DNA of 64,000 nt, taken from positions 4,963 to 68,962 of the forward strand of contig JBDTLT010000002.1 of NCBI GenBank assembly GCA_039934635.1, written 5' to 3'. Both the position numbers and the translations under genes were made by a program. Shown here piece after piece: positions 5,467 to 59,993 of the stretch. A model generated the notes under the pieces. The model was not told the DNA's origin. It saw nothing but the letters and a program-made list of their open reading frames with translations, and searched no databases. Origin of the DNA: Acidimicrobiales bacterium (GTDB taxonomy: Bacteria > Actinomycetota > Acidimicrobiia > Acidimicrobiales > WLNW01). Numbering within the stretch: position 1 is the first letter of the stretch; each line of letters begins with the position of its first letter.

Positions 5467-7089
5467 ATGGCCGAGTTGACCATCAGCACCGCGGATATTG
5501 CCGCCGCGCTGCGCAAGAACCTCGAGGGATTCACGCCCACTGTCGAGATCACCCAAGTTGGTCGGGTGCTCGAAGTCGGCGACGGCATCGCGCGCGTCTC
5601 GGGGCTTCCCGAGGCGGCGGTCAACGAGCTGCTCGAGTTCGAAGACGGGACGTTGGGCCTCGCGCTCAACCTCGACGAAGAGTCGATCGGCGCCGTGATC
5701 CTGGGCGAAGGCAGCCACATCCAAGAGGGCGCGCCCGTGCTCGCCACCGGCCGCATCTTGTCGGTACCGGTTGGCGACGGCCTCCTCGGTCGCGTCGTGA
5801 GCCCGCTGGGCGAGCCGCTCGACGGGCGCGGCCCGTTGACCGGCGATGTGCAGCCGCGCCGCATGGAGATCCAGGCGCCGGGCATCACCGGCCGCAAGCC
5901 TGTGCACGAGCCGATGCAGACCGGCATCAAGGCCATCGATTCGCTCATCCCGATCGGCCGAGGTCAACGCGAGCTGATCATCGGCGACCGCAAGACGGGC
6001 AAGACGACGATCGCCATCGACACGATCATCAATCAAAAGGGCCTGGGGGTGAAGTGCATCTACGTCGCCATCGGGCAAAAAGCCTCGACGGTGGCCAACG
6101 CCGTCGCGGTGTTGAAAGAGCACGGCGCCCTCGAATACACGGTCGTCGTGTTGGCGCCCGCCTCTGACCCGGCGCCCTTCAAATACCTCGCCCCCTACGG
6201 CGGCTGCGCCATCGGCCAGCACTGGATGGAAAACGGCGGCCACGCGCTCGTGGTATACGACGACCTCTCCAAGCAGGCCGAGGCCTACCGGCAGATGTCG
6301 CTGTTGCTGCGCCGCCCACCGGGTCGCGAGGCGTACCCCGGCGACGTGTTCTACCTCCACTCCCGCCTACTCGAGCGTGCCGCGAAGCTGAGCGACGAGC
6401 GCGGCGCCGGTTCGTTGACGGCCCTGCCGATCATCGAGACCAAAGCGGGCGACGTGTCGGCCTACATCCCCACCAACGTGATCTCGATCACCGACGGCCA
6501 GATCTACCTGCAGGACGACTTGTTCAAGTCGGGCATCCGACCCGCGGTCGACGTGGGTATCTCGGTGTCCCGCGTCGGTTCGGCGGCACAGATCAAGGCC
6601 ATGAAGACGGCAGTGGGCACGCTCAAGTCCGACCTGCAGCAGTTCCGTGAGCTGCAAGCGTTCGCGGCCTTCGGCTCCGATCTCGATGCGTTGTCCCGCG
6701 CGCAACTCGACCGGGGCGTGCGCCTCACCGAGTTGCTCAAGCAGGGCCTCAACTCGCCGATGCCCGTGCAAGAACAGGTCGTCTCGATCTACGCCGGCAC
6801 CAACGGCTATCTCGATCCGATCACCGTCGATGACGTTCGCCGCTTCGAGAACGAACTGATCGAATGGTTCCGCTCGCGTCACGGCGATCTGCTCGATGGC
6901 ATCGTCAAGACCGGCAACATCGGCGACATGGGCGCGTTCCAGGCTGCGCTCAAAGGCTTTGCGGCGCAGTTCCAAGCGACGGTGGCCGACGGCAGCGAAC
7001 CGACGCCCGAGGCACAAGCTGCGGCCCATGAGCGCCTTGTCGACAGCGACGTGACCTTGCCCGAAGAAGAAATCGAGCGCGAGGACTGA
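5467..7089 (+). CDS. atpA: F0F1 ATP synthase subunit alpha
   Basis: ATG at 5467 ([22 protein letters not shown]). Walker [14 protein letters not shown]. 540 aa with a C-terminal extension. Confidence 0.97.
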
Positions 7090-7096
7090 TCGTTCG

Positions 7097-8026
7097 ATGC
7101 CCGGCGGCCAAGAGCGCATCCTTCGCAGACGCATCAAGAGCGTCCAGTCGACCAAGAAGATCACGCGCGCGATGGAACTCATCGCGGCCACGCGCGTCGT
7201 CAAGGCGCAACAGCGTGCCTCGGCGGCTCGGCCCTATAGCCGTCAGATCACCCAGGTGATCGAGCACCTCGCCGCCGGTGGCACGACCATCGACCACCCA
7301 CTGCTCAATCAGACCGACGACGTGCAAAAGGTGGCGTTCGTCGTCATCACGTCCGATCGGGGCATGGCCGGCGCGTACAACTCGTCGGTCATCCGAGCCA
7401 CCGAGCGCGAACTGATGGCGCATCGCGAGGCCGGCCGCGACTACGAGTTGATCCTCATCGGGCGCAAGGCCGAGAGCTACTTCCGCTTTCGCCACTACCG
7501 CATCGAAGCGTCGTTCACCGGCGTGAGCGATACGCCCACCTACGAGAACGCGCGGCAGATCGCCGATCTCGTCGCCGAAAAGTTCATCAGCGGAGAAGTG
7601 CAGCGGGTCGAGCTGATCTACACCGAGTTCGTCTCGTTGGGCAGCCAGCGGGTCGCCGTGCGCCGCTTTCTCCCCCTCGAGAGCACGGCCACCGTCGCCG
7701 CCGCCGGCAGCGGTCACGCCGAGCTCGTCGCGGCGGCCGAATTCGAGCCATCGGCTCCCGGTCTGCTCGCCGCCCTGTTGCCCCGTTATGTCGAAGCCCG
7801 GTTGTTCGGCGCGATGTTGGAAGGCGCGGCCTCCGAGCACGCCAGCCGCCAGCGCGCCATGAAGGCCGCCACCGACAACGCCGACGAATTGCAAACAAAG
7901 CTGACGCGCCAGATGAACCGCGCCCGTCAAGACGCGATCACCACCGAGATCATGGAGATCGTCAGCGGTGCCGAAGCCCTTCGCGGCGACGACATCGAGG
8001 CGCTCATCGAACTGGCCGAGACGTAG
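7097..8026 (+). CDS. atpG: F0F1 ATP synthase subunit gamma
   Basis: 309 aa. N-terminus ILRRRIKSVQSTKKITRAMELIAATRV and C-terminus ITTEIMEIVSGAEAL are gamma signatures. Confidence 0.95.
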   Translation: MPGGQERILRRRIKSVQSTKKITRAMELIAATRVVKAQQRASAARPYSRQITQVIEHLAAGGTTIDHPLLNQTDDVQKVAFVVITSDRGMAGAYNSSVIRATERELMAHREAGRDYELILIGRKAESYFRFRHYRIEASFTGVSDTPTYENARQIADLVAEKFISGEVQRVELIYTEFVSLGSQRVAVRRFLPLESTATVAAAGSGHAELVAAAEFEPSAPGLLAALLPRYVEARLFGAMLEGAASEHASRQRAMKAATDNADELQTKLTRQMNRARQDAITTEIMEIVSGAEALRGDDIEALIELAET

Positions 8027-9460
<1,434 letters not shown>

Positions 9461-56267: not shown

Positions 56268-57584
56268 ATGCCCGCGACTGACATCGTTTCCAGTTCCGAT
56301 GCCGCGCACCTTTTGCGTCGAGTGGGCTTTGGCCCGACCGCCGCGGAGATCCAATCATTGACGGGCCTGACCCGGCAGGCGGCCGTCGCGTCGGTGATGA
56401 ACTTCGCCGGTGCCCCGGCCGTGGTGAGACCGGCCGTCGACGACCGCGCCAACGAGTGGGATTGCTACGTCGACGCGCAGGAGTGGTGGGTCGAGCGCAT
56501 GCGCACGACCACCACACCACTGCAAGAGAAGATGACGCTGTTCTGGCACAACCACTTCTGTTCGAGCCAGGACAAGCTCTTCGACATGGGCGCGATGTTC
56601 GACCAGAACCAGAAGTTCCGCACGCTCGGCATGGGCAGCTTCGAGACGCTGTGCCAGGCCATCGCCATCGATCCGGCGATGCTCGTCTACCTCGACAACG
56701 CGACGAATCGTGTTGGCGCGGAGCAGGAGAACTTCGCCCGTGAGCTCATGGAGCTCTTCACGTTGGGTGTCGGCCACTACACCGAGCAGGACGTCATCGC
56801 GATGGCGAAGGCGTGGACCGGGCACAACATCGTGGGGTGGAACGGGTCGTTCACCGACCCCACCTACGTCTACTACCCGGCGCGCCACGACAACACGAAC
56901 AAGACACTGTTCGGCATCACGCAGAACTGGAACGGACCCGCGACGATCACCGAGATCTGCACCGGTTCGAAGAAGACCGAGTGCACGCAATTCATCGCCC
57001 GCAAGATGTGGAAGTACTTCGCCCACACCACGCCGTCCGACACGCTGGTCAACGCTCTGGCGGGAGTGTTCGCCGGCACGATGGTCATCAGCGATCTGGT
57101 CGGCGCAATCTTGTTGCACGACGAATTCTGGGCGCCGGCGAGTCGCTGGGCGTTGGTCAAGAGCCCGGTGGAGTTCGTCGTCGACGTGCTGCGCCGTCTC
57201 GGGCGCCCCTCGACCGTGGCCGGTCTGCCATGGGCCGTCGAAGGCATGGGACAAGTGCTCTTCAACCCGCCCAACGTGGCCGGTTGGGGCCAGAACGCCT
57301 ACTGGTTGTCGACGGCGACGGCGTGGGCCCGTGGCGGCTGGCTGAGCAACCTGAAGTGGCAGCTCGACGGCTGGAACTACTGGGACGAATTTCACCTCTC
57401 GGGCGGCAGCGCGCTCCCGGTGGCGACCGCCGTGCAGAAGATCTTCGACGACCTCGGCATCTTCGAACCGTCGCCCGCAACTCGCACCCAACTGACGTCA
57501 TGGTGGAACGCCGAACCGACCTGGGCGAGACAACCCAACGCGTTGATCGTCGGCGCGATGTGTCCCGAATTCAACGTTGTGTGA
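56268..57584 (+). CDS. DUF1800 domain-containing protein
   Basis: 438 aa. HLLRRVGFGPT N-terminus and TLFWHNHFCSS motif, both typical of DUF1800. No signal peptide seen. Confidence 0.8.
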   Translation: MPATDIVSSSDAAHLLRRVGFGPTAAEIQSLTGLTRQAAVASVMNFAGAPAVVRPAVDDRANEWDCYVDAQEWWVERMRTTTTPLQEKMTLFWHNHFCSSQDKLFDMGAMFDQNQKFRTLGMGSFETLCQAIAIDPAMLVYLDNATNRVGAEQENFARELMELFTLGVGHYTEQDVIAMAKAWTGHNIVGWNGSFTDPTYVYYPARHDNTNKTLFGITQNWNGPATITEICTGSKKTECTQFIARKMWKYFAHTTPSDTLVNALAGVFAGTMVISDLVGAILLHDEFWAPASRWALVKSPVEFVVDVLRRLGRPSTVAGLPWAVEGMGQVLFNPPNVAGWGQNAYWLSTATAWARGGWLSNLKWQLDGWNYWDEFHLSGGSALPVATAVQKIFDDLGIFEPSPATRTQLTSWWNAEPTWARQPNALIVGAMCPEFNVV

Positions 57585-59993
57585 GTGGAGCGAGCGATGA
57601 CGATGCGACGTATGCACAACGACGACAAGAAGCGCCGTGAATTCAGCCGGCGCCGGTTCTTGCAGGCGGCACTGGTCACTGGATCAGCGGCCGCAGTCGA
57701 TCCGAAGTTCTTCTTCGGTGCCGACCCCGCCTTTGCCGGCCCGCCGTTGGGACCCTCCGATCACATCTTGGTGTTGATCGAGTTCGACGGCGGCAACGAC
57801 GGGCTCAACACGCTGATCCCGTACACGAACGGGTCGTACTACAGCTTGCGCGGCGGGCTCGCGATCCCGGCCAACACCGTGTTGCCCGTGGGTGACGGTC
57901 TCGGCTTCCATCCGAGCTTGCCGTACCTCAAGTCGCGTTGGGATGGTGGCGACGTCGCCATCATCCGGGGCATCGGACACGCCGATCTCGACCACAGTCA
58001 CTTCTCTTGTATGGCCAAACTGCAATCAGGCACCGCCGGCAACGCGCCCACCTTGACCGGGTGGGTCGGGCGCTATCTCGACAACGCGGGGCTCGACGGT
58101 CTTGGCGCGATCTCGGTTGCCGACGGCGGCGTGCCCTTGCTGCTGCGCGGCAACTCGGCCGAAGTGACAGGTCTCCCGTCATGGTCGGGTGGGCTATTCG
58201 GTGCCGATCGCACGCAGACGGCGGATCGTGTCACCTACGAGTCGTTGAGTGCGATCAACACCACCGACGGCGGCAAGGGCTATTGGGGTGGCCAGGTCGG
58301 TCAGACGATCCACAGCGCGCTTGCGACCGCACAACTCGTCAACCCGATCTATGCGCCGGCGATCGACGACGACCATCGCCTCGAACGTGATCTCATCCTG
58401 TGCGCTCGCATCATCAACCTCGACCTCGGCGCGCGCGTGCTGCACGTGCGGCTCGGGGGCTTCGACAATCACGACGATCAGCCCAATGACCACGCCACGC
58501 TGCTGAGCGAGTTCAACCGAGCGCTCGACGCATTCTTCGTGAACCTCGCACCGCAGTATCAATCGCGGGTCACGCTCGCGACGTTCTCCGAATTCGGTCG
58601 GCGCGTTCGCCCGAACGACTCGCTCGGCACCGACCATGGCACCGCGTCGACGGCATTCGTCATCGGTAGCCGTGTGAAGGGCGGCTTCTACGGCGAGCAG
58701 CCGTCGCTGACGAACCTCGACTCGCGCGGCGACCTGCGCCACAACATCGACTACCGGTCGATGTTCGCGACGCTGCTGTCGGGTTGGCTGCGCGCCGATG
58801 ACGCGCAGGTGCTGGGGCAGTCGTTCGCGAAGCTCGACATGTTCGAGACCGGCACGTCGTGCGCCGCGGGTTTGATCGACAACATCCCGCTCGCGAATTC
58901 GTACAACGCCATTCGTCCCGTTCGCATCCTCGACACGCGGACCGGCAACGGTGCGACCAAGGCAATGATCGGGCCGGGCGGTGTCATCGATCTGGTGGTG
59001 GCGGGCCGCGGCACGGTGCCGCCGAGTGGCACCGGTGCGGTCGTCATGAACATGACCGTCGCCGACCCGACCGCGGCGGGCTATCTCACCGTATGGCCGA
59101 CCGGGGATGCGCGACCCGAGGCGTCGAACCTCAACTTCGTGCCGGGTCAGGCCGTGCCGAACTTGGTGCTCGCCAAGCTCGGGCAGGGCGGCAAGGTCAG
59201 CATCTACAACTTCACTGGCTCGACCAACGTCATCGCGGATGTGATGGGGTGGTTCCCGCTCACCAATAGCTACCAGCCACTCGTTCCGCGGCGGTTGCTC
59301 GATACCCGCACCGGCACCGGTGCTCCTGTTGCCCGCGTGGGCGCCAACCAGACGCTGAAGCTCTCGGTGCTCGGTCGTGGTGGGGTGCCGGCGTCAGGTG
59401 TCGACGCGGTCGTGCTCAACGTGACCGCGGCGGAGTCGTCGATGACCGGCTACCTCACGGTGTGGCCTACGGGACAACCGCTGCCGAACTCGTCGAACCT
59501 CAACTTGGCGCCCGGCCGCGTAGTGCCGAACCTCGTCATCTCGAAGCTGGGCAACGACGGCACGGTCAGCTTCTACAACTATGCGGGCGACACCCACATC
59601 ATCGCCGACGTCATGGGCTGGTTCCCCGCAGCGAGCGGATTTCACTCGCTCAGCCCGTTGCGCATCCTCGACACGCGCGTCGGCAACGGTGTGCGCGGTC
59701 CGATCGGCGCGCGTCGTTCGATCGACGCCGACGGATTGTGTCGCGGTGGTGTCCCGTCGAACGCGAAGGCGATCGTCATCAACGTCACTGCCGTCGCGCC
59801 GACGGCGGGTGGCTACATCACCGTGTGGCCCAGCGGCGAGGCGCGGCCCGATTCGTCGAACCTCAACTTCGTGCCGGGCCAGACCGTGCCGAACCTCGTC
59901 ATCACCAAGGTCGGTATCGAGGGCATGGTCAGCTTCTACAACGACGCCGGCGACACCCACGTCATCGCCGACGTCATGGGCTGGTTCGAATAG
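57585..59993 (+). CDS. Tat-signal DUF1501 (sulfatase/alkaline-phosphatase-fold) protein fused to three C-terminal repeat domains
   Basis: SRRRFLQAALVTGSAAAV twin-arginine signal. DUF1501 motifs LIEFDGGNDGLNTLIPY, GIGHADLDHSHF, FSEFGRRVRPNDSLGTDHGTAS. 802 aa, whereas I recall roughly 400-450 aa as usual for the family. The start directly abuts the DUF1800 stop (TGA GTG). Alternative ATGs at 57597, 57603 and 57612. Confidence 0.85.
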   Translation: MERAMTMRRMHNDDKKRREFSRRRFLQAALVTGSAAAVDPKFFFGADPAFAGPPLGPSDHILVLIEFDGGNDGLNTLIPYTNGSYYSLRGGLAIPANTVLPVGDGLGFHPSLPYLKSRWDGGDVAIIRGIGHADLDHSHFSCMAKLQSGTAGNAPTLTGWVGRYLDNAGLDGLGAISVADGGVPLLLRGNSAEVTGLPSWSGGLFGADRTQTADRVTYESLSAINTTDGGKGYWGGQVGQTIHSALATAQLVNPIYAPAIDDDHRLERDLILCARIINLDLGARVLHVRLGGFDNHDDQPNDHATLLSEFNRALDAFFVNLAPQYQSRVTLATFSEFGRRVRPNDSLGTDHGTASTAFVIGSRVKGGFYGEQPSLTNLDSRGDLRHNIDYRSMFATLLSGWLRADDAQVLGQSFAKLDMFETGTSCAAGLIDNIPLANSYNAIRPVRILDTRTGNGATKAMIGPGGVIDLVVAGRGTVPPSGTGAVVMNMTVADPTAAGYLTVWPTGDARPEASNLNFVPGQAVPNLVLAKLGQGGKVSIYNFTGSTNVIADVMGWFPLTNSYQPLVPRRLLDTRTGTGAPVARVGANQTLKLSVLGRGGVPASGVDAVVLNVTAAESSMTGYLTVWPTGQPLPNSSNLNLAPGRVVPNLVISKLGNDGTVSFYNYAGDTHIIADVMGWFPAASGFHSLSPLRILDTRVGNGVRGPIGARRSIDADGLCRGGVPSNAKAIVINVTAVAPTAGGYITVWPSGEARPDSSNLNFVPGQTVPNLVITKVGIEGMVSFYNDAGDTHVIADVMGWFE
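58896..59990 (+). repeat. Three in-frame tandem copies of a 369-bp (123-aa) module (third copy 357 bp)
   Basis: Units run 58896-59264, 59265-59633 and 59634-59990. Shared motifs are R(I/L)LDTRxGxG, GY(L/I)TVWP(T/S)G, SNLN(F/L)xPGxxVPNLV, and VS(I/F)YNxxGxT(N/H)(V/I)IADVMGWF. Confidence 0.92.

Follow-up and report, generated by a model that had tools for sequence, protein, structure and literature searches.

What do three copies of one module do at the end of a bacterial enzyme? The question is raised by a gene of an Acidimicrobiales bacterium, in a 64,000-nucleotide stretch of contig JBDTLT010000002.1 (positions 4,963 to 68,962; hereafter the window, and all coordinates below are positions within it). 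The gene encodes a DUF1501 protein, and after the enzyme domain come three head-to-tail modules. We propose that the DUF1501 enzyme would be exported by the twin-arginine translocation (Tat) pathway and would work with a DUF1800 protein, which is encoded by the gene just upstream. The C-terminal 370 residues would be a self-contained accessory device, in which three tandem 8-strand jelly-roll units lie side by side and form a rigid pseudo-threefold body. This body would be a single-chain version of the homotrimers that are formed by C1q/TNF-like lectins and by the Bd2133 fibre tip. It would bind a glycan or polymer of the envelope, and the exported enzyme would be kept at, or targeted to, the cell surface, much as SLH or CWB2 triplets act in other monoderm bacteria. 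For the whole statement (a Tat-exported enzyme with a rigid, pseudo-trimeric, lectin-like triplet that anchors or targets the protein at the envelope), our confidence is evenly balanced.

The open reading frame (ORF) and its three modules are:

57585..59993, forward strand: the whole ORF, with a Tat signal, a DUF1501 domain, and three modules; 802 amino acids from the GTG at 57585
58896..59264, forward strand: module 1, 123 amino acids, a predicted 8-strand beta-sandwich (alignment, model, and profile match)
59265..59633, forward strand: module 2, 123 amino acids (alignment, profile match, and model)
59634..59990, forward strand: module 3, 119 amino acids, with two 1-amino-acid deletions (alignment, BLASTP, and profile match)

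The protein ends one residue past the GWF of module 3 (the stop codon is at 59991-59993). When we compared a profile of the three units to the six-frame translation of the 64-kb window, there were exactly three matches (58896-59264, 59265-59630, and 59634-59990), each with E of about 1e-66 to 1e-69, and no further match elsewhere in the window. The scores (209-219 bits per unit) are partly circular because the profile was built from those same three units. In a MAFFT alignment, the units have 57% identity to unit 1 and 54 invariant columns, and in BLASTP, unit 1 is 58% identical to unit 3 (E = 1e-44). The similarity of the repeats is far beyond chance, and an earlier description of this DNA that was made without database searches (the sequence-only reading) was right to place three head-to-tail modules on the C-terminus of DUF1501. 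All four of the motif blocks that it quoted are found in our alignment, and all three units share the signature P-x-R-x-L-D-T-R ... N-V-T ... T-x-x-P-x-G ... P-x-x-S-N-L-N ... N-L-V ... D-V-x-G-(W/Y)-(F/Y). Its exact 369-bp period needs a small correction: the unit starts are 369 bp apart and the period is exact for copies 1 and 2, but the internal register of copy 3 is shifted by two single-codon deletions (the best self-offsets of the units are 123 and 121 amino acids). The DNA identity between the copies is 62-68%, and Tandem Repeats Finder reported no repeat in the DNA because the copies are too diverged, so, judged from its nucleotides, the triplication is old. It has also been maintained, as had been claimed: exactly three units are kept in every one of the 80 complete orthologues of the DUF1501 type, even where the identity falls to 38%. 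Homologues that lack the modules have 448-461 amino acids, which agrees with the length of roughly 400-450 that the sequence-only reading gave for DUF1501 alone, and the appendage nearly doubles the protein.

The module belongs to a large family that has no name. We searched 1.84 billion representatives of 50%-identity clusters with the three-unit profile, and there were 32,545 representatives with E ≤ 1e-3 and 10,961 with E ≤ 1e-30. None of the units matched any family in Pfam (at E ≤ 10), NCBIfam, or PHROGs, and there was no meaningful match to PDB sequences, either with phmmer or with a 63-sequence profile. In RefSeq, the names that PGAP gives to the carriers are mostly "hypothetical protein" or the name of the partner domain. 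We found no literature on the motif, or on a tandem pseudo-trimeric jelly roll in Actinobacteria. Thus, the module is both recurring and uncharacterised, and the claim that it is novel stands. It is a new domain family, so far undescribed, whose class of fold is known. For this gene in particular, an exported enzyme with an accessory module for binding, it is no surprise in kind. Most of the carriers are from Acidimicrobiales, Ilumatobacteraceae, and other Actinomycetota (including Kitasatospora, Actinospica, Knoellia, Pedococcus, and plasmids from Streptomyces, Arthrobacter, and Curtobacterium), as the sequence-only reading had expected of an actinobacterial module, but the module is also found in Rudaea (Gammaproteobacteria), in metagenome-assembled genomes (MAGs) of Chloroflexi, and in one Cryomorphaceae MAG.

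The functional entity is the whole triplet rather than one unit. Of the best 147 representatives, exactly three units are found in 137, six units in four, and four or five units in the remaining six. This mode at three is not an artefact of the ranking, because proteins with more copies would score higher in the profile search. We also recovered 80 genome loci by using a peptide pattern for a single unit: three units were present in 63 of their 87 closed ORFs, and the ORFs with one or two units were mostly pieces of one locus that is split over several frames. The unit period is 117-136 amino acids in 308 of 310 triplets, and the linkers are short. In 328 of 332 proteins, the triplet occupies an end of the chain (at the C-terminus in 203 and just after an N-terminal signal in 89, while 36 proteins consist of the triplet only). 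We considered whether it might be a sorting signal, similar to the C-terminal domain of type IX secretion or to LPXTG, and rejected this: the triplet is found at the N-terminus, after a signal peptide, as well as at the C-terminus, and no LPXTG motif co-occurs with it among the 332 proteins.

How would three such units be arranged? We modelled a single unit and the triplet (372 residues, with an alignment of 98 sequences) with AlphaFold2. The predicted local distance difference test score (pLDDT) was 97.5 for the single unit and 96.0 for the triplet, and the predicted template modelling score (pTM) of the triplet was 0.93. According to DSSP, the models have eight strands per unit, so the module is beta-rich, as the sequence-only reading had thought. 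Because the pTM is 0.93 over three domains, the triplet is, in the model, one rigid body and not beads on a string; the expected errors between units are about 2 Å.

When we compared the single unit to the PDB with Foldseek, the first match was the tip of Bd2133 (8ok3 and 8ond; E = 1e-4, probability 1.00, template modelling (TM) score 0.62, root-mean-square deviation 3.7 Å). Next were the C-terminal domain of BclA, the trimeric cement protein of phage KHP40, the N-terminal lectin of BC2L-C, and the globular head of C1q; carbohydrate-binding modules (CBMs) and the ligand-binding domains of Eph were lower in the list. The leading structural matches of the unit function as trimers. In a library of predicted viral structures, the triplet aligned end to end with proteins of 373-425 amino acids, with TM scores of 0.41-0.49 and 10-12% identity. 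These proteins are from Hyperionvirus, Terrestrivirus, and uncultured phages (BFVD entries A0A3G5A5X5, A0A3G5A5N8, A0A3G4ZPZ6, A0A6J5RA88, and A0A6J5LW36), and one of them, a phage protein with a TM score of 0.46, is named "C1q domain-containing protein". The match to the whole triplet shows that the arrangement between the units is shared with the viral proteins, and single-chain bodies with three jelly rolls may be widespread in viruses too.

The units come in threes on short linkers, their body is predicted to be rigid, and their structural relatives are trimeric. From these features, which point the same way, we think it likely that the triplet is a rigid single-chain pseudo-trimer, in which the three units would close cyclically about a threefold axis. 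If each unit has the topology of a standard jelly roll, which we assume, then its first and last strands would be side by side and both of its ends would be on the same side.

The solved structure that is most similar to the unit, the C-terminal tip of the Bd2133 MAT fibre from Bdellovibrio bacteriovorus, is also a beta-sandwich of ~120 amino acids. It caps a surface adhesin as a trimer, and its authors found no homologue in the PDB, described the fold as previously uncharacterised, and did not define a ligand (PMC10769870). The tip and the unit are only 8-10% identical, with no relationship that is detectable at the sequence level, and in Bd2133 the homotrimer is made up of three separate chains on a fibre, while here the three units are in one chain and are attached to enzymes. 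The C1q head, the C-terminal domain of BclA, and the N-terminal lectin of BC2L-C resemble the unit in being jelly-roll sandwiches of ~120-140 amino acids; they are trimeric, and are often lectins or receptor binders. In the Foldseek list for the single unit, such C1q/TNF-like trimers have probabilities of 0.85-1.0 and TM scores of 0.38-0.50. Their subunits are separate, whereas the three subunits of the module are fused in one polypeptide, and neither C1q (PF00386) nor TNF (PF00229) has a Pfam match to any unit even at E ≤ 10.

The conserved residues hint at a binding site. In a sample of 687 units from proteins other than DUF1501, R10, R15, and D115 are 100% conserved; N52, P74, N89, G99, and G118 are 99% conserved; and D13, T14, S77, N80, and N105 are at least 95% conserved. 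DSSP places R10 and D13 in strand 1, D115 in strand 8, N52 in strand 3, and N89 in strand 6. In a standard jelly roll, strands 1, 8, 3, and 6 would form one sheet, so on this topology the residues would make up a conserved polar ladder and a candidate site for a ligand or an ion.

The module behaves like the SLH and CWB2 triplets in its number of copies, in where it sits, and in the range of its partners. SLH (PF00395) also comes in threes that form a pseudo-trimer and that lie at the N- or C-terminus of exported proteins with many functions. The SLH triplets anchor proteins non-covalently to a wall polymer (PMC6081394), and in wall proteins from Clostridioides and Bacillus, the three units of a CWB2 (PF04122) triplet make up a triangular body, which attaches to an anionic polymer of the wall (PMC4973711; bioRxiv 10.1101/2025.04.02.646754). 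The module differs from both of these. The SLH unit has ~45-55 amino acids, versus ~120 here, and no sequence similarity to the module; CWB2 is found in Firmicutes, not Actinomycetota, and has no sequence match to it either. Neither fold is a jelly roll: the SLH fold is helical and unrelated, and CWB2 is alpha/beta. The SLH model did not match the window protein, and CWB2, LysM, PG_binding_1, and other named wall-binding models in Pfam gave no match. Overall, the unit is not a sequence member of C1q, TNF, SLH, CWB2, or any CBM family in Pfam, and its fold resembles the trimeric jelly rolls.

A domain swap ties the module to these anchors. DUF1501 homologues that are 48-51% identical in the enzyme part (P0195, P0197, P0199, and P0206) end in SLH repeats, again exactly three, where the module would be. 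Both the SLH trimer and the set of three tandem CWB2 motifs are well established as anchors to the wall, and the swap of one anchor for another between homologues has been documented (PMC6081394, PMC4973711, bioRxiv 10.1101/2025.04.02.646754). Since SLH triplets replace the module in these homologues, the swap supports anchoring. By analogy, the module would bind the cell surface or a glycan, as the sequence-only reading had considered plausible. We infer, tentatively and with confidence that is just short of even, that the role of the triplet is to anchor proteins at the envelope.

The partners of the triplet are diverse: the carriers look exported, and their functions are unrelated. We surveyed them with Pfam scans of 125 carriers and the precomputed domains of 120 more, and found more than 60 unrelated families. 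These include cell-wall enzymes (YkuD with PG_binding_1, Amidase_2, CHAP, and SLT); a protease and glycosidases (Peptidase_S8, GH25, GH43, and GH44), which together with the wall enzymes confirm that the module is attached to secreted and cell-wall enzymes; propellers (RCC1, NHL, PQQ, FG-GAP, and Kelch); glycan- or adhesion-type domains (NPCBM, fn3, Big_3_5, PKD, and TIG); and CAP, cupredoxin, and DUF1501. Cutinase and an RHS toxin are also among the partners. The RHS protein is WP_243542105.1, a repeat toxin of 1,499 amino acids, and is encoded on the conjugative plasmid pB of Paenarthrobacter ureafaciens (locus L081, 6776-11275). Its triplet is N-terminal (7001-8116 of the locus), as are the wall-binding repeats of WapA from B. 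subtilis. In a Chloroflexi MAG (VBHO01000067.1, locus L009), an 11.5-kb locus contains a cluster of paralogues: four separate genes that each end in a triplet. And in a Rudaea sp. MAG (JBDTYX010000002.1; locus L013, 5350-9817), DUF1800 (PF08811, 2.1e-71) carries the triplet, fused to its N-terminus, and this gene is followed by a DUF1501 that has no triplet. Because the triplet of Rudaea is on DUF1800 instead of DUF1501, it serves the gene pair and not one active site.

Several results weigh against a pseudo-trimeric anchor. When the whole triplet was compared to the PDB, Foldseek returned single-domain matches alone, with TM scores of about 0.2. The unit has 8 strands, versus 10 in canonical TNF/C1q, and its TM scores to C1q and BclA are 0.38-0.50. 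Proteins with four or five units exist (6 of the best 147 representatives). The diderm Rudaea and the Cryomorphaceae MAG carry the module, and in them it cannot be an anchor to a polymer of a Gram-positive wall. Some close homologues of the DUF1501 protein have RTX repeats or nothing at the C-terminus, so this position is not reserved for anchors. (The branch with RTX, or HemolysinCabind, comprises P0216, P0218, P0219, and P0229-P0231.) Also, a tblastn search of 50,697 phage records found no match to the module, and hence no precedent for wall binding by an endolysin.

The proteins with four or five units, and the lack of a whole-triplet match in the PDB, would fit with units that are independent beads or that form a rigid but non-cyclic array, with three simply being a common copy number for avidity. 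This alternative concerns only the structure and could be combined with any function. We think it rather unlikely. The pTM of 0.93 is for the whole triplet; the mode at three is strong, with six units occurring as two sets of three, though higher copies score higher; the linkers are short and constrained in length; the nearest solved folds are obligate trimers; and the whole chain aligns to viral proteins with three jelly rolls at TM scores of 0.41-0.49.

A serious rival to anchoring is that the triplet is a lectin in the sense of a CBM, directed at a substrate or a target: it would bind an environmental or foreign glycan and would not anchor the protein to the cell's own envelope. This would account for the module in the diderm Rudaea and for partners such as GH25, GH43, GH44, NPCBM, cutinase, and the RHS toxin. 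Foldseek also lists CBM4, CBM22, CBMs from a pectate lyase and for porphyran, glycan-binding domains of Cry/Vip3, and the adhesive tip of Bd2133. Jelly-roll CBMs (CBM4, CBM22, CBM35, and similar) are like the unit in size, in being all-beta sandwiches, and in being appended to exported enzymes, but their Foldseek matches are weak (TM scores of 0.37-0.40), they act singly, with no rule of three copies, and no CBM family in Pfam matches the unit. Moreover, many of the partners have no glycan substrate (cupredoxin, which is an electron carrier, CAP, the RCC1/NHL/PQQ propellers, and S8), and for the cupredoxin, CAP, and propeller partners, a substrate-binding module makes little sense. The high conservation across all architectures (100% for R10, R15, and D115 and 99% for N52, N89, and G99) argues for one common ligand, and the equivalent position of DUF1501 homologues is occupied by SLH, which is an anchor. 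We therefore consider the lectin for foreign or environmental glycans to be unlikely.

A purely structural role is less likely, and we think it quite improbable. The triplet would then be a device for structure or protein-protein contact (a stalk or spacer, a unit of an S-layer-like lattice, or a dock for DUF1800) with no glycan ligand. Its predicted body is rigid and compact, a trimeric phage cement protein and capsid-type jelly rolls are among the structural matches, and the triplet can be linked to either DUF1800 or DUF1501, all of which would suit such a device. But the range of more than 60 unrelated partner families and the 36 triplet-only proteins do not, and they exclude a dock that is specific to DUF1800. 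The near-invariant residues are polar or charged (R, D, N, S, and T), which is better suited to a ligand or ion site than to a variable protein interface.

Across the family, a unit's best match in another protein is at the same position in 34% of cases, versus 33% by chance, so we rejected position-specific ancestry of units 1, 2, and 3 beyond close orthologues. Close orthologues do keep the position signal (0.94 and 0.75 on the diagonal versus 0.56 off it). The identity between units is about 50% between proteins, where it saturates at a level that is set by the invariant core, and its mean within a protein is 61%; in P0143, the units are unusually alike (78%). That, in the set of 310 triplets, units within a protein are more alike (61%, and up to 78%) than same-position units across proteins (50%) suggests that some lineages have undergone concerted evolution, with local homogenisation, or else repeated re-triplication. 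The units of the window protein are at the saturation floor, which fits the sequence-only reading's "old and maintained".

The rest of the locus bears on what would be anchored. The other features are:

56268..57584, forward strand: DUF1800 gene, 438 amino acids (Pfam PF08811, 1.9e-93, full length)
57597..57737, forward strand: twin-arginine signal peptide (SRRRFLQ, a hydrophobic stretch, and AFA|G, with the cleavage site inferred)
57747..58874, forward strand: DUF1501 enzyme domain (PF07394)

From the junction sequence, the DUF1501 ORF directly abuts the stop codon of the DUF1800 gene. The call of GTG 57585 as the start is probably wrong. We prefer ATG 57597 because there is a GGAG 8 nt upstream of this candidate start, and because the orthologue P0112 (93% identical, 798 amino acids) begins with MTMRRM. 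So, although the ORF from GTG 57585 does have the 802 amino acids that the sequence-only reading gave, the protein probably has 798. The match to Pfam's TAT_signal (amino acids 19-38; E = 0.0067) has 16.8 bits, which is below the curated cut-off of 22.7, and the SRRRFLQ motif and the AFAGPP site are retained in orthologues P0112-P0121.

The match to PF07394 (amino acids 270-378) is well above the cut-off (73.4 bits versus 27, E = 2.6e-20), and 120 homologues carry this annotation. By its Pfam clan, DUF1501 is in the alkaline-phosphatase superfamily. In the DUF1501 part, S138/H139, D294/H296, E336-R339, and D350-H351-G352 are invariant across 121 homologues. These polar residues could be metal ligands or catalytic, and because they are invariant, the enzyme part looks intact, as judged from residue conservation. 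The DUF1501 domain had no match to PDB sequences, and among the papers listed for DUF1501 and DUF1800, the titles and abstracts are silent on their function. DUF1800 is a conserved partner gene of DUF1501, and the two proteins may be exported together by hitch-hiking on the Tat pathway. The genes further out have no relation to the pair: upstream lies argininosuccinate synthase, while a short-chain dehydrogenase and a fatty-acid desaturase follow downstream. A MAG that is labelled Acidimicrobiales bacterium (locus L001) has a 96%-identical unit and an ORF pattern like that of the window, which places the window in an acidimicrobial actinomycete. The contig index has no entry for the exact protein. 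We also note that the N-terminus of the DUF1800 protein is not signal-like and that the abutting DUF1501 has the conserved Tat motif.

We believe that these results provide a useful annotation and a structural lead, and not a new principle. Beyond the sequence-only reading, they add the rule of three, the predicted rigid pseudo-trimer, the swap with SLH, and the size of the unnamed family. Because a family with over 30,000 representatives has no Pfam or NCBIfam model and no RefSeq name, part of each of thousands of surface proteins in actinobacteria goes unannotated, and among these are wall hydrolases, proteases, glycosidases, and polymorphic toxins. The triplet as a unit, probably a single-chain pseudo-trimer, gives both an annotation rule and a structural target, and is a candidate display or anchor tag for Actinomycetota. 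It also offers a first clue to the place of action of the DUF1800/DUF1501 pair, which is still enigmatic.

To our knowledge, non-covalent surface anchoring in Actinomycetota is poorly understood. It is possible, though we hold this more in doubt than the anchoring role itself, that the module is a third class of three-repeat non-covalent envelope anchor, after SLH and CWB2, that is built from a fused C1q/TNF-like pseudo-trimer, and that it is the main means of displaying exported proteins on a specific wall glycopolymer in Acidimicrobiia and many other Actinomycetota. If so, tens of thousands of "hypothetical" surface proteins would become readable at once.

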